Source of the DNA: Candidatus Fermentimicrarchaeum limneticum
GTDB taxonomy: Archaea > Micrarchaeota > Micrarchaeia > Burarchaeales > Fermentimicrarchaeaceae
Reading direction: 5' to 3'
Assembly (NCBI GenBank): GCA_013426015.1
Contig: CP058998.1
Location: 724,071-788,070, forward strand
Length of the DNA stretch: 64,000 nt
Below the pieces are notes generated by a model that had not been told where the DNA came from, searched no databases, and saw only the letters and a program-made list of their open reading frames with translations. Position numbers and translations under genes: made by a program. This document shows, one piece after another, positions 36,928-56,415 of the stretch; within the stretch, counting starts at the first letter, position 1, and each line of letters opens with the position of its first letter.

Positions 36928-37536
36928 ATGGGTGAACTTTTGATTCAGCAGGAAAAGTATTTGGAAGCTGGCATACATATCGGTACGAAGATAAAGACGC
37001 CCGACATGAACCAGTTCATATACAAAGCAAGGCAGGACAGGCTGTATGTGCTTGATTTGAAGAAAGTTGATGAGAGGATAAGAGTTGCTGCAAAATTCAT
37101 CCCTCACTACAAGCCCGAGGAAATGCTGATTGTTGCCTCAAGATTGTATGCGAGCAGCTCCGCCAAGAAGTTCTGCGAAGCGGTGGGATGCAGGGTTGTT
37201 GAAGGCAGGTTTATTCCAGGAATGCTGACAAACCCCGCAAGAGGGGATTACTGGGAACCGAAGCTGCTGTTCATATGCGACCCGAAGAATGAGAGGCAGG
37301 CAATAAAGGAAGCAAATTCGACAGGCATACCTGTGATTGCACTGTGCGACACGGACAACTCCACGAAATTCGTGGATTGGATAATCCCGTGCAACAACAA
37401 AGGCAGGAAGTCGCTTGCATTAATTTTCTATCTTCTTGCAAGGGAAATCAAGAAGCTTAAGGGAGATGAGGAGTTCAAGCTAAAGCCGGAGGACTTTGAA
37501 GGAATGAGAGACGAGGAGGAAGAGCCCTCAGCTTGA
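36928..37536 (+). CDS. rps2: 30S ribosomal protein S2
   Basis: uS2; start ATG 36928 ([19 protein letters not shown]...) just after the tRNA. Confidence 0.92.
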
Positions 37537-38781
37537 TTCCCTTATGCAGTTGTTCTTGACAAACGGGTCAGTTATGCTCTGGCATACTGTTGAGTTCTTG
37601 CTGTTTATTGCAAGCTGCTTGAAACATTCATCCTCCCAGTTCTGATGGATGATGGTCGCGCATGAGGAGAACGTGTAATTCTGGTTGTATATTATAGACG
37701 AGTAGCACGTGTTCATCGTGTAGGTGTTCTCTATTTTCGAGCAGAAGGACGGGTTGCTAGCGCTTTTTGCAATATTTAGATGGCACGAATCCTTCTTCAT
37801 AGGTTCGGATATCCTGTTGCATAGCGAGATGTTGCCCGTGACATTTGCAACGCCGTAATAGCAGTTATCCTTGTCCGTTATGCACTCGTAGCAGATTATC
37901 CTGGAGCATATGTCCGCATTCCTGCTTTTCACAGCTATGTTTGTGTAGCACTTGTCCTGGTAGAGGTGGGTGCTTATGTTCGAGCATAGCGAGTAGTTCG
38001 TGCTGTCGCTTGCAAAAACCTCAATGCACGAATCTATCTGCAGGTAATCCGGAAGTTCGTTGCAGAGAGAGTAATTTCCGGTGAGCTTCGTGAGGCACAG
38101 GTATTTCGTGTATAGATTGGAAATGCTGCTGCAGAGCGAGGAATTGCTGTTGAGATATGCAAAGTAGCGGTAGCAGTCGCCCCTCACCCCTGCTCCCGCA
38201 GGCAATGCGCATATGGAATAGTCATTCTTGTTCTTTGCAAATTCAACATAACACATGTCGGTAAGGGACTGGTTTTGGATTTCCGCACATATCGACTCAT
38301 TGTTTCTTGCCTTTGCCATGCAGAGATGGAAGTCGTAACCGTCAGTCATTTCCTCGCAGAGCACGGTATCGTCACCCAAGTCCAGGCGGCACTGCTTTCT
38401 CAGAATTGCATTCTCAATTTTTTTGCATGTGACAACTCCCACAACCGGTGCCAAGGTATGGTAGCAGTCGTCCCTCGTCTCCATGCTGAGTATTCTTCCG
38501 CAGAGTGTCGAGTCATTCAGATTTATTGCAAACCTGAGGTTGCAGGCATCCCTGAGAGAGTCTGAGAAGATGAACGAGCATGCGGTCAGGTTGTTCTTGG
38601 AGATTGCATCGTTGTAGTAGCATCTGTCTCCCTCTGCGCGGTCGGTTATTTCAGCGCACTGCAATTCCACAGGCGGCGGGGTTACTGTACCGTTATTTTT
38701 CGGTCCTTCAGGAAGCTGATATGAGACGCATCCAAAGAGCAATAAGAAAAATACCGTGAACAAGGCTATTTTGACGTTCAT
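37528..38781 (-). CDS. Cys-rich tandem-repeat lipoprotein (predicted secreted, N-glycosylated surface protein)
   Basis: Signal peptide plus lipobox-like [18 protein letters not shown]; ~15 repeats of ~26 aa with pattern C-x2-I-x5-7-[RD]-x-C-[YF]; ~30 Cys; many N-x-S/T sequons. Confidence 0.6.
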
Positions 38782-38886
38782 GAATAGATTTAAGCTGCAT
38801 CTATTTATTAACATTTCTTTAAGGTCAGCTTACCCTCTTGTCTTCATCTGGCTTTCGCCATCAGGAATACCTCGTATCATCACTAA

Positions 38887-38979
38887 TAGCCCCGGTCGGA
38901 TTCGAACCGACGTGAGCGGGTCCAAAGCCCGCTATCTTACCAGGTTTCACCAACCTCTTGGCCACTAGATGACGGGGCT
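38887..38979 (-). tRNA. tRNA-Gln (anticodon UUG) with ~19-nt intron in the D-arm
   Basis: Hand-fold: acceptor AGCCCCG/CGGGGCT+A73, anticodon arm GCGGG-CTTTGGA-CCCGC, T-arm GTCGG-TTCGAAT-CCGAC; D-stem ATCT/AGAT encloses 29 nt (loop + insert); 93 nt. Confidence 0.7.
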
Positions 38980-40537: not shown

Positions 40538-41143
40538 ATGCCGGTATTCATAGACTCAAGGATTTGCGATAATCAGGATGTATGCGACGTTAAGAAGATC
40601 TGCCCGAGTAATGCAGTCTCGCTTGACAAAAAGGAAGGGATGATAATTGACAGTGCGAAATGCACAGGGTGCCTGCTCTGCCTGAAGGCTTGCCCTTACC
40701 TTGCCGTGAAGCTTGCCAAGGATGAGAATGAGCTTGCTGAGTTCAGGAAGAAGCTGAAAAGAGCCAAGCTGGACAGAAGGGCGCATATCGCAAAAATCTA
40801 CGGGACAAAGCTCGGCAGGGTCGGGAGGGTACAGCTTAAAGATTCTAATTTCAGGAAGAAGGTTGACTCGAAAGTGCCAACGTTGGTCGTTTTCTGGGGG
40901 GCCCATAGCGGGGTCATGGCTCCTCTGCTGAGGGAGGCTGGCAGAAGGCACAGGAACAAGCTGAGGGTAGCATACGTAAAATTTGCTGACAACCCAAAAA
41001 CTAGCAAGAAATACGCAATAGCCACCACCCCCACCCTTGTGCTTTTCAGGGAGGGGAAGGAGATCGGAAGGCTGGATGGGATAAGACACCGGGAGACTCT
41101 GAGGGTGTGGATTGAGACGAAACTGAAGCCTAGTCCTTCTTGA
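40538..41143 (+). CDS. 4Fe-4S ferredoxin domain fused to a thioredoxin-fold domain lacking the CxxC active site
   Basis: N-terminal CTGCLLCLKACP motif; C-terminal thioredoxin-like region with WGAHSG in place of WCxxC. Confidence 0.55.
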   Translation: MPVFIDSRICDNQDVCDVKKICPSNAVSLDKKEGMIIDSAKCTGCLLCLKACPYLAVKLAKDENELAEFRKKLKRAKLDRRAHIAKIYGTKLGRVGRVQLKDSNFRKKVDSKVPTLVVFWGAHSGVMAPLLREAGRRHRNKLRVAYVKFADNPKTSKKYAIATTPTLVLFREGKEIGRLDGIRHRETLRVWIETKLKPSPS

Positions 41144-42232: not shown

Positions 42233-44743
42233 CTATTTTATTACAAAAACAGTTGCAGTCTTCTCATCCTCATCTGGCAGAGCATCTGAGTAAATCTCTC
42301 CCTTAAAAGTATGAATTTTTAAAAGCTCAACATTTCCTTTTTCGAACTTTTCTTCTGCGTATGGAGTTGCATCACTATAGGTGGTTCCCAGAATGACTTT
42401 CTTGAAGCCAGCCTTCTCTGCTAAATCCTTGACAAAACCGATCGAGGCTTCGTATATCTCATTCGTATTCTTGTAAGAGCTTGTTATGTTTATGGAATCT
42501 ATTATCAGAGTGGATTCACCCCCGATCTTGCCTGCGAAGAGCCATGCCTGCCCGATTCTCTGTTCTTTTCCTTCTTTTGTTATGGATATCTCGGCTATTT
42601 GAGTCGCAGCATCCATCATGTAGATAGGTAGAGTCCACCTGTTACCTCCATTAAAAGCAACACAGCAACCCGAATCGTTCCCGTTTGTCAAGGCAGTCAA
42701 CGGGTTTTTATCACTCAATTTCACCGAGATTATAATCTCCCCTGCTTCGCCTTTCATCGGCTTCACAGGCATGCCGAGCAATCTTTCAATCTCCTGAACA
42801 TGGAATAGGGCAGTTCTAGCCTCGCCTTTAATCTCCTCTGAGTCTACTACCATCGAACCAGGCGTTCCTGTGGTCTTTAGATACTTCTCAAGCACCGACA
42901 CTGCTTCCTTTGACCATTTTTTATCATTTGACAGCATCATCTCAATTATTGCCTTTGCTCTCTCCTCTGGGGTTTTGTAGTCCCGTGCATCAAGAGAGGT
43001 CAGTTCCGCAAATACCTTTCCCGGCTTCTTGAAAACCTCCCCTTTCGGGTTGCTGAAAAGCTGCATCACCACATCCTGGAACGTATCATTGATGTGCTCC
43101 TCTCCTGCCTCCAGCTTCTCAATTCCTGTTAATGTTTTCTTGAAGACTACTTTGTCAATCCCCTTGTAGTAGACGTAGACATCGGTATTTATTCCAAGCT
43201 TGTTCATTTCTGTGAGTGCTTGCTTATTCTCTTCTAGTGAGTCGTAGTACTTTTGGAAGGTGTTTTCAAGCCCGTACTTTATGAGTATCCTTACTTCCTC
43301 GTTTTTTTCAATAAAATCTAAACCAGATATCATTTTGATAAGATATTCCTTCTGGTCTTGGGCTATTTTTTCAAATGGGAATTTCACATCTTCCGCTATT
43401 TTCTTAGCGCCTAGGTCAATAAGCTGTGCAGAGAAGTCCTGCAGCTTGAGCCGGGAGAGCTCTTCTTTTGAGAAATTGGGTATATAACTAATAAGACGGG
43501 GATTTTTCAACAGACTAGTCACAGCAGAACTTAAATCTTGCATTGTTAATCTTTTTCCCTCTGTTTGTGTTAACAGCGCACCTAACACCTTTTCTCTCTC
43601 TCCCCAAGATTCAATAAACCCCTCCTCTTTTAGTTTTTCGTTTAACAAGTCTTCTAATTTTTTAATTTCTGATATCCACCCACTCATTTCTTCTTTGGTT
43701 TTTATGATTCCCTCCATTGCTAGATTTACAAGATTCCCTCTAATTTCAAAATCATAAAAGATATCGCAGGCTACATCTGCCACCTTTGCCCTTTTTTCAA
43801 TCTCTGGCACCCAGTCTCTCAGTTCCTCAACGGTTTTTGCCACTCCTGTTTTTACTAGTGAATCCAAATACTTCGAGCCTATTTGCCGCGTGGATGAATT
43901 AGCAGAAATAAGTTTGAAGTCTAACTCATCGTATACGCGGTCTAATCTTTTTATATGGCGTACGTCGGATTCATATAATTTCACTAGTTTTTTAAGGTCT
44001 TCTGAGGATTTTACCATGTCTTTTTTTACCAATTCGGGTAGATGGTTGCGGCATACGTACTTACCCCATAAATCATTAAACTTGAAGTCTCTCAATAGGT
44101 CTGCTTTTGCTAGGTTTGGGAAAACAAAGGATATGGGCAACCCACCGAGCTCTCTTCCATGATATTCTGCGTCCCGTGTTAATTCATGTAGTTTGACTAT
44201 TGCGTGTAAGTCATTCGGGGATTTTATCACTCCCTTATCCAACATAAGTTGTAGACTGTCTCCCCACATGATATTGCTGATAGTGATTAGTTCTAAACCG
44301 CAGCACCCTAAGTCATTCGGGGATTTTATCACTTCTTTCTTTCCTAGTTTCGAAATAAATTCATCCAGATCTATCGGTCCAACTGAGATTCCTTGATGCT
44401 CGGAAAGATATTTATGCAATCCGATCAGCTTTTTTCCATACCTTTCCAAATCTTCCGTGTCTTTTATCAGACCACTCTCTCCAAGCAGTAGGAAACCTCT
44501 TTCGAAATTCATCCAGTAACGTCCAGGTTCTGATAACTCGTATAATTTATGCAGGGCTGTAATGTTTTCAGGTGTGACCTTAAGGCGCATTCCTTTCAGT
44601 ATTCTCTCGTGAATCTCTCTTTCATAGGAGGGGATTTTCGCCAGCTCCCTCTTCATTCTCTGCTCAGGGATTTCAGGCTTTATGCGCTCTGTTTCTACTG
44701 GCTGCTCGGCAGGCGCTTCAATGGGTTTCAGCTTCTCTGGCAT
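42233..44743 (-). CDS. Large hypothetical protein (836 aa) with internal tandem repeat
   Basis: No recognisable catalytic motif; 105-bp direct DNA repeat (~44207 and ~44312) encodes duplicated (V)IKSPNDL segment; no signal peptide. Confidence 0.5.
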   Translation of the reverse strand: MPEKLKPIEAPAEQPVETERIKPEIPEQRMKRELAKIPSYEREIHERILKGMRLKVTPENITALHKLYELSEPGRYWMNFERGFLLLGESGLIKDTEDLERYGKKLIGLHKYLSEHQGISVGPIDLDEFISKLGKKEVIKSPNDLGCCGLELITISNIMWGDSLQLMLDKGVIKSPNDLHAIVKLHELTRDAEYHGRELGGLPISFVFPNLAKADLLRDFKFNDLWGKYVCRNHLPELVKKDMVKSSEDLKKLVKLYESDVRHIKRLDRVYDELDFKLISANSSTRQIGSKYLDSLVKTGVAKTVEELRDWVPEIEKRAKVADVACDIFYDFEIRGNLVNLAMEGIIKTKEEMSGWISEIKKLEDLLNEKLKEEGFIESWGEREKVLGALLTQTEGKRLTMQDLSSAVTSLLKNPRLISYIPNFSKEELSRLKLQDFSAQLIDLGAKKIAEDVKFPFEKIAQDQKEYLIKMISGLDFIEKNEEVRILIKYGLENTFQKYYDSLEENKQALTEMNKLGINTDVYVYYKGIDKVVFKKTLTGIEKLEAGEEHINDTFQDVVMQLFSNPKGEVFKKPGKVFAELTSLDARDYKTPEERAKAIIEMMLSNDKKWSKEAVSVLEKYLKTTGTPGSMVVDSEEIKGEARTALFHVQEIERLLGMPVKPMKGEAGEIIISVKLSDKNPLTALTNGNDSGCCVAFNGGNRWTLPIYMMDAATQIAEISITKEGKEQRIGQAWLFAGKIGGESTLIIDSINITSSYKNTNEIYEASIGFVKDLAEKAGFKKVILGTTYSDATPYAEEKFEKGNVELLKIHTFKGEIYSDALPDEDEKTATVFVIK

Positions 44744-44877: not shown

Positions 44878-45477
44878 CTACTGGCAGCAGTGGAAAGGTT
44901 TGCTGGTGTAGGATGGATCGGCAACTCTATTTGCACCACACTCGTCTGGCAGGTTTTGGACTACAATTGGCATTATTTGACCGCCAGGACTAAGCCACTC
45001 GTTGGACCACTCGCCTCCGGTTGGGATGGTGATTGCTCCAGCATGGCATGCGCCATAAAGTTGCGGTATGTCACACAAAGTCTTGTTTTCACTCTGGCAT
45101 TGCGCCATAGAATCATCTATTGACTTTGCACTATTTGAAGAGGTGTCTATGCAGAAAGCTCCTGCCCTTGTCATATCAGTAGGACATGGAAGTTGGGCTA
45201 TAGTTACTGCTGGACCAGGATTTCCTTGGGATCCTTGCGGTCCGGCTGGCCCAGTATCTCCTTCTGGACCTTGGGGTCCCACCGAACCTGTATCGCCTTT
45301 AGATCCCTGAGGTCCTACATCACCTCTTGAACCTTGGGGTCCTATTGGACCAGTATCGCCCTTCGGACCCTGCTGTCCGGTATCACCCTTCGCTCCTTGC
45401 GGTCCTGCGGGACCTACCTGTGTGCAACCGGCAAAAAACAGCGCTACAATCAATAAGACAATTAAGAGCCTTCTCAT
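44878..45477 (-). CDS. Collagen-like (Gly-X-Y repeat) lipoprotein with Cys-rich C-terminal domain
   Basis: Signal peptide plus lipobox-like [18 protein letters not shown]; ~25 uninterrupted G-X-Y triplets; C-terminal ~110 aa with 8 Cys. Confidence 0.65.
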
Positions 45478-45555
45478 TACCTTCACCCCCAATTATTTAG
45501 TTAGGGCTTTTTAATATATGCATTAGTCAAGATAATCCTTTATAAGATAAATGTA

Positions 45556-45722
45556 TGGGGCCAGAGGGATTTGAACCCTCATTAACAGGTGTCTCATAAA
45601 GCATCTCATCCTTTGTCAATGCTCCAATTCTAAATCATCCCCGAAGGTCATTCCACCTGTAACAATGCTCCTCTACAAAAGGAACTGGAGCCTGTTGTTC
45701 TGCCAAGTTATACCATGGCCCC
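45556..45722 (-). tRNA. tRNA-Trp (anticodon CCA) with ~90-nt intron at or near the canonical position
   Basis: Hand-fold: acceptor GGGGCCA/TGGCCCC+A73, anticodon stem ACAGG/CCTGT with loop CTCCAG..., T-arm GAGGG-TTCAAAT-CCCTC; 167 nt precursor. Confidence 0.7.
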
Positions 45723-47230: not shown

Positions 47231-47587
47231 ATGTTGATGGAGGCACCTGCCAAACCCGAAGTGATTAGGGACATGGCGGAGAAGCTCAAGGATACCCACA
47301 GATTGATGGCGATATCCGGGATTGACGAGGGCGGCAGCATAACGCTCTGCTATCATTTCTGGAGCATCTCCAGCAATGAGATAATGAACTTGAGAGTAAA
47401 GCTTGGAAAGAGCAATATACGAACCATATCGGACATCATACCAAACGCTCTGTATTACGAGAGGGAAATCCACGATTTGCTGGGAGTTGAGTTCGGAGGA
47501 GCAAAGCTGCACCCGCTGCTCGTCCCTAAGGGGTATAAGAAATATCCCCTGAGAAAGGCTCTTGAGGGGAAGAAGCTCAGCCCTTGA
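47231..47587 (+). CDS. NuoC-like (30-kDa subunit family) component of a [NiFe] hydrogenase / complex I-like module
   Basis: YYEREIHDLLGVEF motif characteristic of NuoC/EchD-type subunits; 118 aa. Confidence 0.65.
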   Translation: MLMEAPAKPEVIRDMAEKLKDTHRLMAISGIDEGGSITLCYHFWSISSNEIMNLRVKLGKSNIRTISDIIPNALYYEREIHDLLGVEFGGAKLHPLLVPKGYKKYPLRKALEGKKLSP

Positions 47588-48431
47588 CTATCTGCATACA
47601 CTGGTCCCTCAAGAGTTCTGTTGCGATGTATGTGCACAGAGTAGGGTTATTCGTGTCCTTTGCTACCTGCGTGTAGCAGCTGTCCCTCAGTGATGCAGAC
47701 GGCAGGTTTTTGCATGCATCGGGGTTCTTGGAGTATACCGCAGCCACATACAGGCAGGCCTGCTTGCCTTGCGATTCAGTTATCTGGTTGCACAAGGCAG
47801 GATCTATGCTTCCTGTCTTGCATAGGTCTTTTGAGAATGGGTTTACTATCTGGTTGCAGAGCGTCGTATCATTGAGCTCCTCTGCCACTGAGAATACGCA
47901 CCTGTCCACGGCATCCTGCTGCGATTCTGGGTTATCGGTCACAATCAGCTTGCAGAAAGCAGTATCCCTGTTCTGTATGGCAAGGTTGGGGTATATCTGG
48001 TTCTTGCAGGTATTCCTTGATATGTTGAGGGATATGCCGTCGCAGATTTCGGGCCTTTCCATAGCAATCGCTATTCCTGAGAGGCAGCTGTCCCGCTGGT
48101 AGCTGGAGTTGATACGCATGCACATGGAAGTGTCATTGCTGCTTGCAGCCAGCCTGCCAAAACACTCGTCCATCAAGTTGCCGGACAGTTTGGCGCACGT
48201 TGAAGAGTTTACGGGGAGATCTGCACCTATGAGCAGCGCATAGCACTTCTCTGAAAGGCTGCTCACAGTTATCTCATCGCATTTTGACATGTTCTTTGTT
48301 TCGACTGCAACTAAGACAAGGCAGTTGTCCTTCTGTGACGGATCCCAGAGGTGGTAACATCTGTCAGGGGACCTATTCTCTAGAATACAGCCAGAGAGAA
48401 ACACAAGCAGTAGCAGCAGCTGTTTCCTCAT
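47577..48431 (-). CDS. Cys-rich tandem-repeat lipoprotein, paralogue of the 37528..38781 protein
   Basis: MRKQLLLLLVFLSGC signal/lipobox; same ~26-aa Cys-pair repeat architecture and N-x-S/T sequons; embedded antisense within the hydrogenase gene cluster. Confidence 0.6.
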   Translation of the reverse strand: MRKQLLLLLVFLSGCILENRSPDRCYHLWDPSQKDNCLVLVAVETKNMSKCDEITVSSLSEKCYALLIGADLPVNSSTCAKLSGNLMDECFGRLAASSNDTSMCMRINSSYQRDSCLSGIAIAMERPEICDGISLNISRNTCKNQIYPNLAIQNRDTAFCKLIVTDNPESQQDAVDRCVFSVAEELNDTTLCNQIVNPFSKDLCKTGSIDPALCNQITESQGKQACLYVAAVYSKNPDACKNLPSASLRDSCYTQVAKDTNNPTLCTYIATELLRDQCMQIVKG

Positions 48432-48522
48432 ATAAGTGATTTATATACGTTACGCAATATAAATTTTTCTAGGAAGCAGCTTTACATAGCCACTTTATGA
48501 GGGTTTACCAAGCGGTGGAACA

Positions 48523-49653
48523 ATGCATGATTCGAAATTGGTAATTGGCCCCTCCCATCCGATGCTAGTTGAGCCTGCAAGACTGGTATTCGGAATCAAG
48601 GATGGGAGAATCAAAAGCGTCGATATTGACCTAGGCTACACCCACAAGGGGATAGAAAAAATGCTTGAGACGAAGAACTACACCCAAGCAGTGCCATTCG
48701 TTGAAAGAATATGCGGGATATGCTCGCACTGCCACGCCTCTAATTTCTGCTACGCTGTTGAGAAGCTCAGTGGGATTGAGATTCCAGAAAGGGCTAAGTA
48801 CATAAGGACGATTGCTGCCGAGCTTGAGAGGGTACACAGTCACCTGCTGGTTCTCTCCCTGACCATGGAGGATATAGGGCAGAGGAAGCTTATGCTGGAA
48901 ACACTGGACAGAAGAGAGAGGATAGTCGATGCATTTGAGGAGTTCACCGGAGGCAGAGTGCACCACTCTATAAATGTAATAGGGGGAACGCGACTGGATA
49001 TTGACAAGGATGCGGCTGGGATGATACGGACTGCCGTAGACGAGGCTACGGAGTACTCCAAGAAGCTTGCCGAAACGATACTCAAAAACGATTCTGTAAG
49101 GAAGCAACTGGAGGGAAATGGCGTGCTGAGCAGAGAGAAGGCAAAGCAACTGGGCGTCGTAGGCCCTGTTGGCAGAGGCTCCGGCATAGATTACGATGTC
49201 AGGAAGGCGAAATCGTATGGAAAGTATTCTGAGATGGACTTTAGCATACCCTTGCACGATGAGGGAGATAGCCTGGCGAGGACACTTGTGAGGGTTGAGG
49301 AGATACCAGAGTCCGCCAGGATAATAAAGGAATGCTTCAGCAGGATGCAGCCAGGGGAGTTGAGGGTGAGATGGGACGGCAAGCCACCTGCCGGTGAGCA
49401 GATACACCTGGTAGAGGCTCCTCGAGGGGAGAATCTGCACTACGTAATTTCAAGGGGAGAGAGGACCCCCTACAGGGTCAGGATAAGGCCGCCCTCTTTT
49501 GCAAACCTGCAATGCGCTGCTACGATATTGGAAGGTGCAAGCGTGTCCGATATACCGGCAGCAGTGATAAGCCTTGACCCATGCATAAGCTGTACCGAGA
49601 GGACCGCGTATATCGACAGGGGAGGCATAGTATATGTTGAGTACAGGGGCTGA
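48523..49653 (+). CDS. [NiFe] hydrogenase large (catalytic) subunit, group-4 (Ech/Mbh-like)
   Basis: N-terminal RICGICSHCH (RxCGxCxxxH-type) and C-terminal DPCISCTER (DPCxxCxxR-type) motifs; 376 aa. Confidence 0.8.
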   Translation: MHDSKLVIGPSHPMLVEPARLVFGIKDGRIKSVDIDLGYTHKGIEKMLETKNYTQAVPFVERICGICSHCHASNFCYAVEKLSGIEIPERAKYIRTIAAELERVHSHLLVLSLTMEDIGQRKLMLETLDRRERIVDAFEEFTGGRVHHSINVIGGTRLDIDKDAAGMIRTAVDEATEYSKKLAETILKNDSVRKQLEGNGVLSREKAKQLGVVGPVGRGSGIDYDVRKAKSYGKYSEMDFSIPLHDEGDSLARTLVRVEEIPESARIIKECFSRMQPGELRVRWDGKPPAGEQIHLVEAPRGENLHYVISRGERTPYRVRIRPPSFANLQCAATILEGASVSDIPAAVISLDPCISCTERTAYIDRGGIVYVEYRG

Positions 49654-50317
49654 GGACACTGTCAAAAAATTCCCAAAGGTCTATCCGCTGGCACTAGCAG
49701 GCTGCAATGGATGCGACATAGAGATAATCGCAACGCTTGGCCCAAGATTCGACCAGGATAGACTCGGGATAGAGGTTGTGAATTCTCCGAAGGATGCACA
49801 TATACTCATGGTTAATGGAACGGTCAACAGGAAGCTCAAGAAGCATCTGAATGGCATATACAAGCAGATGGCCGACCCGAGGATTGTTGTTGCGGTCGGT
49901 TCCTGCGCGATATCAAATGGGCCTTTTAGGGAATGCTACAATATGTGCTGCAGGGTTGATGAGGTTGTGCCCGTTTCAGTTTACATACCGGGCTGCCCCC
50001 CGAGACCGCGAGCTATATTGTACGGGCTGAGGAGGACTCTTGAAAAGTGCCCACCGAATCTCGCTCCCGCTCCACTGAAGACAAGGTCGCGCCTCACCAG
50101 GGACAGGAAGATATGCATAAACTGTGGGGCATGCACGCTGGTATGCCCGTCAAAGGCGTGTTACTTCGTGCAGGACAAGGAGAAGAGGAGGGTGGATTTC
50201 AACCTGGCTTACTGCACATTCTGCGGGCAGTGCGTTGAGGTGTGCCCTGTCAAATGCCTGAAGATGGTGAATGAGTATGAGCTGGCTACGTCCAACAAGG
50301 ATGAGCTAATGATTTGA
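49634..50317 (+). CDS. Hydrogenase small subunit (NuoB-like) fused to a 2x[4Fe-4S] ferredoxin domain
   Basis: NuoB-type Cys (AGCNGCD...GSCAISNGPF...GCPPRP) followed by two CxxCxxCxxxCP motifs. Confidence 0.8.
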   Translation: MLSTGAEDTVKKFPKVYPLALAGCNGCDIEIIATLGPRFDQDRLGIEVVNSPKDAHILMVNGTVNRKLKKHLNGIYKQMADPRIVVAVGSCAISNGPFRECYNMCCRVDEVVPVSVYIPGCPPRPRAILYGLRRTLEKCPPNLAPAPLKTRSRLTRDRKICINCGACTLVCPSKACYFVQDKEKRRVDFNLAYCTFCGQCVEVCPVKCLKMVNEYELATSNKDELMI

Positions 50318-54086: not shown

Positions 54087-54595
54087 ATCGGCTTCAAGAA
54101 CTATTAGGAGTGAGCGTATTGATGTTCGCTTACCTTGCACTCACACTTTTTCATTCTCGTATCATGGAACGAAAATTTAAGGAGGTGATCTATCCGCAGG
54201 TTCCCCTACGGATACCTTGTTACGACTTAGCCCCTCTCATGACGAATTAGCTCGACGAGATCCGAAGGGATCCCGCCTCACTAAAACTTCATTTGAGTGA
54301 CTTGACGGGCGGTGTGTGCAAGGAGCGGGGACGTATTCACCGCTCGATGTTGACAAGCGATTACTAGGGATTCCAGCTTCATGAGGGCGAGTTTCAGCCC
54401 TCAATCCGAACCTAGGCCGAGTTTGGGGATTAGCTCCTCCTCTCGGAGTGGCAACCCATTGTCTCGACCATTGTATGCCACGTGTAGCCCGGGAGATTCA
54501 GGGCATACTGACCTACCGTTGCCGTCTCCTTCCTCCTGTTTAACACAGGCAGTCCCAACAGAGTGCTTCATCTCCGGAGAGATGAATAGCAACTG

Positions 54596-55105
54596 TCAGC
54601 GACGGTCTCGCTCGTTTCCGGACCGCATGAGTGCTTTTTTTACTTCGGAGTGCTTCATAGAATCCTTGACAAAAACAATGAATTCCCTTGGAGTCATTAT
54701 TGCCAGCCTTCCTTTGATGAATCTGGTTCTGAAGCCCAGAAGCTCAAGTAGCATCTGGTCCTTGTACGAAGCACGCGCCAGGTAAGGCGTGTCCCCCTCT
54801 ACCCCGCCGCAGGAATCGAACATCCCTGCAACGTATGAGGAGGAGTATCTGTTCCTTTTCCTGAAAACATCTATTTGATTCTTCTCAGCTCCCTCAAAGA
54901 ATGTCCTGTACGCTGAATGATAGAAGTACACGTCCCTGTCAGTCATCTGTATCTTCTCTGGAGGAATCTTCAGCGTCTTCATTATTTCTTTCAGGAAAAT
55001 CTCCCTGATCTCTCCGCTGCCTCGTATTCCGATTCCACTGGGAACCCTCCTTCCTTTCCATAAACCTATTAGGTATGCCAGTTCAGGCGTCATTTTAATT
55101 CTCAT
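54596..55105 (-). CDS. LAGLIDADG-like homing endonuclease ORF encoded in the 16S rRNA intron (motif 1 degenerate)
   Basis: Two LAGLIDADG-type motifs (LAYLIGLWKG lacking acidic residues; YVAGMFDSCGGV); ORF 3' end runs ~22 nt into the downstream exon. Confidence 0.6.
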   Translation of the reverse strand: MRIKMTPELAYLIGLWKGRRVPSGIGIRGSGEIREIFLKEIMKTLKIPPEKIQMTDRDVYFYHSAYRTFFEGAEKNQIDVFRKRNRYSSSYVAGMFDSCGGVEGDTPYLARASYKDQMLLELLGFRTRFIKGRLAIMTPREFIVFVKDSMKHSEVKKALMRSGNERDRR

Positions 55106-55147
55106 TCTCTCACTCCAAAACGGATGCACTCATGCGATTTACCGGAC
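54618..55147 (-). mobile_element. 16S rRNA intron (archaeal bulge-helix-bulge type) carrying an endonuclease-like ORF
   Basis: Insertion between GGUUAAGUCCGG and AACGAGCGAGACC; flanks GCAUGAGUGC / GCACUCAUGC can pair; GUCCGG duplicated at both junctions. Confidence 0.8.
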
Positions 55148-55287
55148 TTAACCGGACACTTCACAGCACGAGCTGACGATGGCCATGCACCACCTCTCGG
55201 CTCGTCAGGTAAGATCTTCAGTCTGACCTTCATACTGCCGTCGCTCCCGGTGATATTCCCGGCGTTGAATCCAATTAAACCGCAGCA

Positions 55288-55330
<43 letters not shown>

Positions 55331-56415
55331 ACCTTGCGGCCGTACTCCCCAGGCGGCAGACTTAACACTTACGCTACGGCACTGCCACAGCACTAAGCTA
55401 TGGCAACACCACAGTCTGCATAATTTACTGCTAGGGCTACTCGGGTATCTAATCCGATTCGTTCTCCTAGCCTTCGTCCCTCACTGTCGGACGCGTTTTG
55501 GCCAAGCGCCTTCGCCACTGGGAGTCCTCACAGGATTAACGGATTTTACCCCTACCCCGTGAGTACTCTTGGCCTCCCCCGCTCCCAAGCCCGTCAGTAT
55601 TCTCTGCACTCCTTCAAGTTGAGCTTGAAGATTTCACAGAGAACTTAGCGGGCCAGCTACGGACTCTTTAAGCCCAATATTCGTGGATACCACTCGAGCT
55701 GCCGGTGTTACCGCGGCGGCTGTCACCGGTCTTGCCCAGCTCTTATTCCGCAAGCTCCTTAAGCTTACGAAAAGATGCTCGCGTGGAGCATCACTCAGAA
55801 TCCCCTCGTCACGCTTTCGCGCATTGCGAAGGTTTCGCGCCTGCTGCATCCCGTAGGACTGGAGCCCTTGTCTCAGTGCTCCTCTGGGGGCGCCAACTCC
55901 CATTGCCCCCACCGATTATCGGCTTGGTGGGCCGTTACCCCACCAACTACCTAATCGGAAGCAGTCTCATCCTAAGGCAGACATGGCTGCATTTCGCCAC
56001 GCTGTTTGGGCTATGAAGCTTTCCAGCATCCATAACCTATGTGGTATTAGCCTCAGTTTCCCGAGGTTATCCCCCTCCTTAGGGCAGATTGACCACTCGC
56101 TACTCAGCCGTATGCCACCCCTCCTTGCAGAAGGGGTAGACTTGCATGGCTTAGTCGAATTCTGATAGCAGTACCCTCCAGCAGGATCAACTGGAATTAG
56201 AGCACACTATTCTTCCGCAAGTTCGGCGAAAAGACACCACTATCGCTCACTTCTCCTGTTCTTGAAGCCAGAGTCAAATCCAAACAAGCTTGGATTTCCA
56301 TCGATATTATGCGCTATAGAGGAAGGGTATATCTCACAGCACGAAATAGAATTCGCGCTCCATTTACGCCGTAATCTACAGCGTCCGCACGGCGAAAGAA
56401 GATTATGCACTCTCT

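Follow-up and report, generated by a model that had tools for sequence, protein, structure and literature searches.

Two paralogous genes, here called A and B, lie on the minus strand of the Candidatus Fermentimicrarchaeum limneticum Sv326 (Micrarchaeota; a very small archaeon) genome within the window, the whole 64-kb stretch of DNA that was analysed. Gene A (37528..38781) encodes 417 aa plus a stop codon and has 16 orthologues of 414–418 aa; its product is a 100% match to Sv326_0855, annotated as 'hypothetical protein'. Gene B (47577..48431) encodes 284 aa plus a stop codon and has 17 orthologues of 280–285 aa. The two proteins share 25% identity and are alignable in many registers (BLASTP, E = 4e-21). 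A first, sequence-only reading had proposed a Cys-rich tandem-repeat lipoprotein family with two paralogues at this locus, and the open reading frames, the BLASTP score and the lipobox signals described below all bear it out. Two ATGs are candidate starts for A, at 38814 and 38781. All 16 orthologues begin at the Met of 38781, and a TATA-like box, TTAATAAATA (38802..38811, minus strand, 21–30 nt upstream of the ATG), sits between both ATGs. The start is therefore placed at 38781, and the 428-aa version beginning at 38814 is unlikely. The TTAATAAATA box is a putative promoter of A, and its position would imply a leaderless or short-leader transcript. Similarly, the TATA-like TTTATATT (48456..48463, minus strand), 25–32 nt upstream of the ATG of B, may serve as the promoter of that gene.

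Both proteins start with a Sec-type signal peptide consisting of a positive n-region, a hydrophobic h-region and an end resembling the lipobox consensus [L/V/I][A/S/T/V/I][G/A/S]C (PMC12462473). The signal sequence of B, MRKQLLLLLVFLSG (aa 1–14, 48390..48431, minus strand), has an MRKQ n-region and a poly-Leu h-region and ends in the canonical lipobox L-S-G, followed by Cys15 (48387..48389, minus strand). In A (aa 1–17, 38731..38781, minus strand), an n-region with Lys4 and a Leu/Phe-rich h-region lead to the lipobox L-F-G and to Cys18 (38728..38730, minus strand), the predicted lipid-attachment site and mature N-terminus. All 17 sequences of A share M1, G17 and C18, all 18 of B share G14 and C15, and the Gly-Cys of the lipobox is unchanged across the 35 orthologues of A and B together. 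Lipidation of Cys18 and Cys15 is suggested by these features. In the archaeal lipobox lipoproteins, for which Haloferax volcanii and the AliA/AliB pathway are the model, the signal peptide is likewise closed by a lipobox whose Cys is invariant; A differs from them, and from the strict consensus, by Phe/Leu at −2. The signals of A and B lack a twin-arginine motif, in line with predictions for non-halophilic archaea, DPANN among them; in DPANN, a high prevalence of Sec lipoproteins is predicted and AliA has been reported 'with some gaps' (PMC12462473). The papers found contained no experimental lipidation data for any DPANN protein. An N-terminal lipobox is present in 87 of 149 relatives and a hydrophobic anchor in 51, so that 138 of the 149 carry either. 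A third lipobox protein is encoded 3 kb from B. Behind the lipobox of A follows a Pro/Thr/Asn-rich linker (aa 19–41, 38659..38727, minus strand) that is predicted to be disordered (pLDDT < 50) and contains a sequon found in 12 of 17 orthologues. In B, the repeat array begins just 10 residues past the lipobox Cys.

The repeat arrays consist of helical-hairpin units of about 26 aa (23–29, modal 26), of which A has 15 (aa 42–417, 37531..38658, minus strand) and B has 10 (aa 25–284, 47580..48359, minus strand). Each unit of A is a short helix followed by a long helix with a Cys1-x11-Cys2 spacing. The unit motif is [N/D]-x-[S/T]-h-C-x2-I-x5-[K/R]-D-x-C-Y-x3-A, and the spacing of successive cysteines alternates between 12 and 14. 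The 10–15 copies of a two-Cys unit of about 26 aa that had been read from the sequence are thus confirmed, and the position profile recovers the motif given for them, C-x2-I...[RD]-x-C-[YF]-x3-A, and displays a core-type periodicity of Cys1/Ile+3 and Cys2/Ala+5. Past the lipobox, B has 20 Cys in its 10 units. A has 32, contributed by 14 canonical two-Cys units and one irregular four-Cys unit, C-x4-C-x2-C-x6-C (aa 292–307, 37861..37908, minus strand), which is invariant in the orthologues and places a CxxC at the N-terminus of a long helix. A has 20 Cys pairs at a lag of 25–27 residues, compared with 7.1 ± 2.5 and never more than 18 in 10,000 shuffles; B has 12, compared with 4.1 ± 1.9 in shuffles. 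Cysteine makes up about 8% of the residues, and every one (33 in A, 21 in B) is invariant across orthologues of 46–70% identity. The conserved residues are nearly all at structural-core positions and define no binding site.

The helical hairpin anticipated by the sequence-only reading is obtained in AF2 models of both proteins (pLDDT 88.5 for A and 87.6 for B). The models are all-α solenoids in which short and long helices alternate behind a disordered N-terminal tether, that is, α/α hairpin solenoids like those of the Sel1-like/Hcp family. Fold comparison returned generic α-solenoid matches only, and no Pfam, NCBIfam or PDB match was found for A or B, in line with the earlier remark that the repeat could not be placed in a named family. 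The known families that come closest differ in several ways. Sel1 (Pfam PF08238) matches neither A nor B at E ≤ 1 and none of 82 diverse relatives at E ≤ 0.01, and the units of 23–29 aa are shorter than Sel1-like repeats (~36–44 aa, or 30–36 in COA7). TPR repeats are 34 aa long and match TPR profiles, neither of which holds for A and B. The sole weak Pfam match is to the CHCH/CX9C family PF16860 (E = 0.46, 10.9 bits against a cut-off of 26.4 bits), whereas the spacing in A and B is Cx11C.

The repeat family to which A and B belong is large, widespread and unnamed. An exhaustive profile search retrieved 5,712 clusters, with members in archaea, which are mostly lipobox-anchored, and in bacterial contigs, which are TM-anchored. 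Named sources among the relatives are one Altiarchaeota, one Micrarchaeia and 'Euryarchaeota archaeon SM23-78', the last among the 6 matches of a profile made from a crude alignment of 82 sequences. The repeat keeps its regularity across very diverse organisms, bacteria included.

The closest known counterparts are HcpB and HcpC of Helicobacter (PDB 1KLX, 1OUV) and human COA7, which are, as predicted for A and B, α/α solenoids outside the cytoplasm. In these proteins a conserved Cys pair in each repeat bridges both helices of that repeat (PMC8892353). The A/B family departs from them in repeat length (26 aa, range 23–29, versus 30–44), in Cys separation (12 versus 8–11), in the number of units per array (10–34 versus 4–9), in having one helix of merely 6 residues and, for A and B, in the predicted lipid anchor. 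The bacterial TPR and TPR-like envelope lipoproteins (LpoP, NlpI, BamD, YfgM-type) are built of 34-aa rather than 26-aa repeats and, unlike A and B, neither carry two invariant Cys per unit nor escape TPR Pfam models; TM-scores of A and B against them are about 0.1–0.3, a likeness limited to local hairpin geometry. CHCH (CX9C) proteins also have a helical hairpin with inter-helix disulfides, as proposed here, but theirs stands alone, with two CX9C motifs and two disulfides, while A and B are tandem solenoids. The best reading is that A and B extend the Hcp/COA7-like kind to a lipid-anchored, disulfide-stapled α-solenoid that would act as an envelope scaffold.

A lies between ProRS and rpS2 and B beside a DHH gene; these positions are kept down to 42% ProRS identity, a distant Micrarchaeote included. 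The repeat number is constant in all orthologues, as their narrow length ranges reflect, and the dN/dS of B is 0.12, compared with 0.10–0.22 for neighbouring housekeeping genes. Nothing in the relatives and gene contexts examined, be it an operon partner, a fused domain or a signature of ligand binding, points to a specific partner. A functional link of B to the flanking [NiFe] hydrogenase genes was rejected, because these genes are absent beside B in L005, L008 and L010 and because the hydrogenase cassette is swapped between 95%-identical strains. A PMT_2 glycosyltransferase adjoins two bacterial relatives and none of three archaeal contexts.

Alternatively, A and B could be glycosylated repeat rods that project from the cell as adhesins and bind a host archaeon or another cell, as the proposal of cell-cell attachment had it. 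The surface location, the repeat architecture and the enrichment of sequons would suit such a function, as would the organism itself, a DPANN archaeon, since cultivated DPANN members are host-associated. The variable solenoid surface over a conserved core would suit it as well, as would the rate at which the two proteins evolve, somewhat above that of ribosomal proteins and ProRS. Nevertheless, the fixed repeat number, the deep synteny and a dN/dS of 0.12, which is at the level of the neighbouring housekeeping genes, argue against a diversifying adhesin. None of 82 relatives has a fused adhesin-type domain, and an array that starts 10 residues from the membrane anchor, as in B, can hardly reach beyond the S-layer. 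Attachment is thus not supported by the evolutionary behaviour of the genes, and we regard it as improbable.

The sequons call for a more divided judgement. A has 13 of them where 6.1 are expected from composition (P = 0.004) and B has 7 where 3.1 are expected (P = 0.02), corresponding to densities per 100 aa of 3.1 and 2.5, compared with 0.37 for eleven other proteins of the window. Most are located 4–6 residues ahead of the first Cys of a unit, so the claim that sequons are frequent at repeat boundaries holds, with an enrichment of about twofold. In A, 10 sequon columns are kept in at least 12 of 17 orthologues. The sequons occupy helix caps and turns, exposed positions as in archaeal N-glycoproteins, and most of them coincide with helix N-caps. 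However, at the cap −4/−2 from Cys1 in the superfamily, Ser/Thr follows Asp (51%) as often as Asn (52%). Because Asp and Asn are interchangeable at this cap, the sequon excess appears to be largely a helix-cap motif, and the sequons are probably in part a structural by-product of helix capping. Of the 'dense N-glycosylation' first read from the sequence, the enrichment and its conservation stand, while its interpretation as glycosylation is weakened.

In its strictest form, this reading takes N-x-S/T as purely structural caps that are never glycosylated; a related doubt is that the N-terminus carries no lipid anchor but an SPase-I signal or a signal anchor that stays uncleaved. The occurrence of Asn-Pro-Ser/Thr in the same position in some units, in addition to the equivalence of Asp and Asn, agrees with the former, and the plain hydrophobic anchor in 51 of 149 relatives and the off-consensus −2 residue of A agree with the latter. 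Several observations oppose them. At the second cap (+5/+7) of the superfamily, Ser/Thr favours Asn over Asp (29% versus 16%, p = 9e-5); A has shifted from Asp to Asn at the cap (Asn:Asp 89:32, where the superfamily has 289:659) and avoids a Pro behind the Asn; and the lipobox Gly-Cys is invariant in all 35 orthologues. There is accordingly a small chance that either doubt is right. N-glycosylation of A and B is suggested by the pattern of sequons, and a cultured Micrarchaeote expresses N-glycosylation genes. More generally, helix-capping motifs can inflate sequon counts in repeat proteins.

The regular Cys pairs, together with the precedent of COA7, HcpB and HcpC, each of which has one intra-repeat disulfide per α/α repeat (PMC8892353), suggest that the repeats are stabilised by disulfides. 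Of 88 lipobox relatives, 75 have an even number of cysteines in the mature protein (binomial p = 9e-12), and arrays open on a 12-residue gap in 93 and close on one in 113 of 149 relatives. These statistics are compatible with Cys pairs within a unit, although an even count also follows from whole two-Cys units. Co-loss of Cys pairs (38- versus 40-residue gaps) was uninformative as to the disulfide partners because Cys is almost never lost. No extracytoplasmic thiol oxidase was identified within the window. A Trx-fold gene near A (40538–41143) was rejected as a disulfide catalyst, being a cytoplasmic-type ferredoxin-Trx fusion without a signal peptide and without CxxC. The organism lives in anoxic water, which counts against the disulfide reading. 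That the cysteines are reduced, functional thiols, whether as ligands for metals or sulfur species or as a redox buffer or relay on the surface of an anaerobe, is quite unlikely: their abundance and invariance, the extra four-Cys unit with its CxxC, the lack of an oxidative-folding catalyst seen near A and B, the redox activity of COA7 as the closest structural analogue, and the hydrogenase of the window, classed as membrane-bound and O2-sensitive group 4e as fits an anaerobic, fermentative organism, would suit this role, yet each hairpin has exactly two, core-facing Cys, conserved His, Asp or Met partners are missing, the paired repeat Cys of COA7 and Hcp are structural disulfides, and the family is just as regular in very diverse organisms.

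We consider it about an even bet that A and B are vertically inherited paralogues of a large unnamed family that serve as membrane-tethered extracytoplasmic α-solenoids and conserved envelope scaffolds. According to this scaffold model, the signal peptide would direct export, and the lipid-modified N-terminal Cys would anchor the protein on the outer face of the cytoplasmic membrane. The mature protein would form a rod or superhelix of 26-residue helix-turn-helix units, each with a 6-residue helix bearing Cys1 and a 14-residue helix bearing Cys2. Both Cys would point toward the interface of the hairpin, where they most likely pair in a single disulfide staple within the unit; this would let an unusually short α/α repeat be stable outside the cell. 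Asn or Asp would cap each helix; where Asn is followed by Ser/Thr, an exposed sequon would result at the turn, and some of these are probably used. A and B may then act as conserved scaffolds or spacers between the membrane and the S-layer, with the variable solenoid surface available for partner binding, in the manner of bacterial TPR/Sel1 lipoproteins.

A bolder proposal, which we put forward tentatively, is that the Cys1-x11-Cys2 hairpin of 26 residues represents a distinct, undescribed class of α/α solenoid, shorter than any disulfide-stapled helical repeat now known. It would then be a major membrane-tethered envelope family in DPANN, in other uncultivated archaea and in bacteria with small-genome-like contexts, and the Micrarchaeota A and B would be core envelope components, for instance membrane-S-layer spacers or anchors, or conserved contact scaffolds. 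If there is indeed one disulfide per hairpin, the rare principle of Hcp and COA7 would be extended to a far shorter repeat, which would matter for protein design and for understanding how anaerobes fold proteins oxidatively outside their cells. The family has thousands of members and is covered by no curated library; its unit motif, confident fold model and predicted topology (lipid- or TM-anchored, extracytoplasmic) can directly seed a new family model. The envelopes of DPANN archaea consist largely of 'hypothetical' proteins, and it is their surface biology that underlies both the symbioses of these organisms and the difficulty of cultivating them.

Protein A (417 aa) is encoded by an open reading frame at 37528..38781 and protein B (284 aa) by one at 47577..48431, both on the minus strand and at the coordinates of the sequence-only reading. 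The A sequence matches Sv326_0855, annotated as a 'hypothetical protein' in Candidatus Fermentimicrarchaeum limneticum, at 100% identity, which places the window in a Micrarchaeota (DPANN) genome. A longer A frame from 38814 is conceivable on paper. It is disfavoured because the Met of 38781 is the start in all 16 A orthologues, this N-terminal Met is an invariant alignment column, and a TATA-like TTAATAAATA lies at 38802-38811 (-), between the ATGs of 38814 and 38781 and 21-30 nt upstream of the latter. TTTATATT occurs 25-32 nt before the ATG of B on the same strand. At their 3′ ends both genes overlap convergent neighbours: A overlaps rpS2 by 9 nt (37528-37536), which is retained in related genomes (L001), and B overlaps a NuoC-like gene by 11 nt (47577-47587).

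Past the lipobox Cys, the Cys gaps of both proteins alternate between 12 and 14 residues. A has 32 such Cys in 15 units, 14 of them canonical Cys1-x11-Cys2 and one a four-Cys unit at aa 292-307 (C-x4-C-x2-C-x6-C); the 10 units of B contain 20 Cys. At a lag of 25-27, A has 20 Cys pairs against 7.1 +/- 2.5 after shuffling (10,000 shuffles, maximum 18), and B has 12 against 4.1 +/- 1.9. The unit position profile, [N/D]-x-[S/T]-[L/I]-C1-x-x-[I/L]-x-[D/N]-x3-[K/R]-[D/N]-x-C2-[Y]-x-x-[V/I/L/F]-A, recovers the two-Cys motif described earlier. A and B share 25% identity and can be aligned in many registers (E = 4e-21), as expected of the paralogues they were taken to be. When every six-frame ORF of the 64-kb window was screened locally with an HMM, A and B were the sole members recovered. 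The tandem repeat of the two proteins is real and highly regular.

AlphaFold2 models were built on the orthologue alignments, and the five models per protein agree with one another. Both proteins are modelled confidently as all-alpha, with pLDDT of 88.5 for A and 87.6 for B. In each modelled unit, Cys1 sits on a 6-residue helix, which a 3-residue turn connects to a second helix of ~14 residues with Cys2 at its centre. Of the disulfide-bonded helical hairpin put forward earlier, the hairpin is thus predicted, and the disulfide we infer. Judging from helical periodicity, Cys1 and Cys2 would both point into the hairpin interface, because the other conserved small or hydrophobic residues (Ile, Ala) are their i/i+3 and i/i+5 partners. 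Residues 16-37 of A form a low-confidence tether rich in Pro, Thr and Asn, and the repeat array of B begins just 10 residues past the lipobox Cys.

Pfam and NCBIfam scans of A and B gave no significant match, the best weak Pfam match being CX9C (E = 0.46, 10.9 bits against a 26.4-bit cut-off). When 82 diverse relatives were compared with Pfam, the repeat was covered by no model, with only sporadic single-member matches to unrelated domains. A profile search of PDB sequences returned no match below E = 0.38, and Foldseek nothing at E <= 0.001 (TM-scores ~0.1-0.3). The fold belongs with the generic alpha/alpha solenoids, and the repeat is not recognisable as TPR, PPR or Sel1. The family lies outside every named family tested, in keeping with the earlier statement that it could not be placed in one. 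Conceptually, it comes closest to the Sel1-like repeat proteins HcpB, HcpC and human COA7, whose 30-36-residue alpha/alpha repeats contain one disulfide each, with the Cys 8-11 residues apart; according to the COA7 authors, a disulfide-bridged repeat is unusual for the Sel1-like family (PMC8892353).

An exhaustive HMMER search of 1.84 billion cluster representatives with the A profile yielded 5,712 matches at E <= 1e-3, 1,979 at E <= 1e-10 and 150 at E <= 1e-30. The best 149 of the 5,712 relatives are 176 to 1,034 aa long and contain as many as 69 Cys (~34 units), and their Cys gaps alternate, mostly between 14 (1,679 instances) and 12 residues (1,529 instances). A lipobox is present in 87 of these 149 and another N-terminal hydrophobic anchor in 51; the other 11 appear truncated or have a cytoplasmic zinc ribbon at the N-terminus. 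The few source names available are Micrarchaeota/Micrarchaeia, one Altiarchaeota MAG and 'Euryarchaeota archaeon SM23-78'. The contigs of two TM-anchored members carry Mur ligase, D-Ala-D-Ala ligase, MurA-type, MreB and DNA polymerase III delta-prime genes and are therefore bacterial. The repeat family is large and spans archaea and bacteria. No recurrent partner pointing to a specific biochemical function was found in the neighbourhoods and domain fusions of the relatives. In two bacterial contigs (L016 4530-7953 and L017 3126-7992), TM-anchored relatives adjoin genes for PMT_2 (GT-C type) membrane glycosyltransferases, with an 11-nt overlap in L016; this adjacency is seen in none of three archaeal contexts examined. 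A DsbD_TM/CcdA-type thiol-disulfide membrane protein gene (L012 1365-2075) lies 6 kb upstream of P0039, a 927-aa member with 69 Cys, a proximity that was seen once and may be coincidence.

Of 88 lipobox-bearing relatives, 75 have an even Cys count past the lipobox (binomial p = 9e-12), and the 12-residue gap opens the array in 93 and closes it in 113 of the 149 best relatives, a parity and boundary pattern equally expected from whole two-Cys units without any bond. Since arrays start and end on the 12-residue gap, the integral unit is Cys1-x11-Cys2. A single staple within each hairpin unit, of the COA7 and Hcp kind, would fit the parity and boundary data. Cys loss is nearly absent among the relatives, which leaves co-loss statistics uninformative. 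A also has an extra, invariant CxxC at the N-terminus of a long helix (aa 297-300). A thiol, metal or redox role of the A and B cysteines is a minority alternative to stapled hairpins.

The signals of both proteins have a basic n-region and a Leu-rich h-region, without a twin-arginine motif. The lipobox-like endings noticed earlier hold up, B being canonical (L-S-G-C) and A off-consensus at -2 (L-F-G-C), and from these we infer that both proteins are lipidated. Sec-type lipoproteins are predicted to be prevalent in DPANN, where the lipidation component AliA (arCOG02177) is present with gaps (PMC12462473). A third lipobox protein, of 204 aa, lies between A and B at 44878-45492 (-), in a lower-GC stretch. 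Its signal ends in LFFAGC and is accompanied by ~20 G-x-y triplets of collagen type (Pfam Collagen, E = 5e-14) and a C-terminal domain that contains Cys, making it an archaeal collagen-repeat lipoprotein.

Orthologues of A (n=16, 414-418 aa, 46-70% identity) and B (n=17, 280-285 aa, 53-95% identity) come, where named, from Micrarchaeota or Micrarchaeia MAGs. Every Cys (33 in A, 21 in B) and the lipobox Gly-Cys are invariant; beyond these, invariance is mostly confined to repeated core positions: the Tyr that follows Cys2 and the Ala at +5 from it, the Ile at +3 from Cys1, and the Asp preceding Cys2. A always lies downstream of ProRS and in convergent orientation to rpS2, where the ribosomal-protein/SecY cluster ends, and B adjoins a DHH-family gene and rpL35Ae. 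These positions are kept in the distant Micrarchaeote L010, at identities of 42% for ProRS, 29% for A and 30% for B. Both proteins diverge faster than rpS2, RpoN and ProRS, at about the rate of the DHH protein. The copy-number variation or positive selection envisaged earlier is not what the orthologues display: repeat number is constant, and dN/dS between the window and the 95%-identical strain L014 is 0.12 for B (DHH 0.145, rpL35Ae 0.10, NuoC-like 0.22), which is ordinary purifying selection.

The hydrogenase genes around B were considered as conserved context and rejected, since a different cassette is present there in that strain. Between flanks of ~95% nucleotide identity (window 48476-50076, L014 490-5412), the group-4 [NiFe] hydrogenase cassette is 1.6 kb in the window, with the large subunit and a NuoB-ferredoxin fusion only, and 4.9 kb in L014, with Mrp-type antiporter subunit, large subunit, NuoB, NuoH and ferredoxin genes. 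The large subunits are 75% identical (dS 2.1), and the cassette looks to have been swapped or reduced between near-identical strains. At 40538-41143 (+), a 4Fe-4S ferredoxin is fused to a thioredoxin fold in which WGAHSG replaces the WCxxC active site; the gene is kept near ProRS in a related genome (L001). An 836-aa ORF without a Pfam match or obvious signal peptide (42233-44743, -) lies in the lowest-GC part of the window (~41% vs ~50%) and so may be foreign or fast-evolving DNA.

Several RNA features accompany these genes. Between ProRS and gene A, a tRNA-like element at 38887-38965 (-) has the acceptor stem AGCCCCG/CGGGGCT, the T-arm GGTTCGAATCC, the anticodon stem-loop GCGGG-CTTTGGA-CCCGC (UUG, Gln) and ~20 additional nt between the D and anticodon arms. 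It was missed by ARAGORN and the Rfam gathering threshold, scored 28.4 bits in a sensitive scan (29-bit cut-off), and is probably a tRNA interrupted by a non-canonically placed intron. Another tRNA match (Rfam, 43.6 bits; 45556-45722, -), unreported by ARAGORN, spans 167 nt, which implies a long intron. The window contains an archaeal rRNA operon, in which the 16S rRNA match at 54180-56197 (-) extends over 2,018 nt against a 1,478-nt model. A 177-aa ORF on the same strand within it (54596-55129) has two LAGLIDADG-like motifs (LAYLIGLWKG, YVAGMFDSCGG), and this suggests a 16S rRNA intron with a homing endonuclease gene.

Sequons exceed the expectation from composition about twofold, with 13 against 6.1 in A (P = 0.004) and 7 against 3.1 in B (P = 0.02), and are ~7-8x as dense as in eleven other window proteins. 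A sequon occupies ten alignment columns in at least 12 of 17 orthologues of A and six columns in at least 15 of 18 of B. The sites are the N-cap positions of both helices, -4 and +5 from Cys1. Across the superfamily at -4/-2, Ser/Thr is equally common after Asp and Asn (51% vs 52%); [N/D]-x-[S/T] is therefore a structural capping motif, and an Asn cap yields a sequon. The dense N-glycosylation read earlier accordingly stands as sequon enrichment and conservation, and only partly as glycosylation. Some sequons may nonetheless be used: A favours Asn at the cap (Asn:Asp 89:32, against 289:659 in the superfamily) and avoids Pro after Asn (13% vs 44%, p = 8e-4, with orthologue columns non-independent), and at +5/+7 in the diverse superfamily Ser/Thr follows Asn more often than Asp (29% vs 16%, p = 9e-5), all of which favour real glycosylation sites. 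In a cultivated Micrarchaeote, the S-layer protein is glycosylated and N-glycosylation genes are expressed (bioRxiv 10.1101/2021.04.28.441871).

Taken together, the data support A and B being conserved, membrane-tethered, extracytoplasmic alpha-solenoids. Their most likely role would be structural or scaffolding in the envelope, as a spacer, anchor or partner-binding platform between membrane and S-layer. Such a role would parallel that of TPR/Sel1 lipoproteins, and A and B would work like the disulfide-bridged alpha/alpha repeat proteins Hcp and COA7 and like TPR-type envelope lipoproteins. Attachment to host cells, the cell-cell attachment suggested earlier, fits poorly with a repeat number that does not vary, deep synteny, purifying selection and a tether that is very short in B. 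A sizeable dark family is now cleanly defined, with a testable structural principle.
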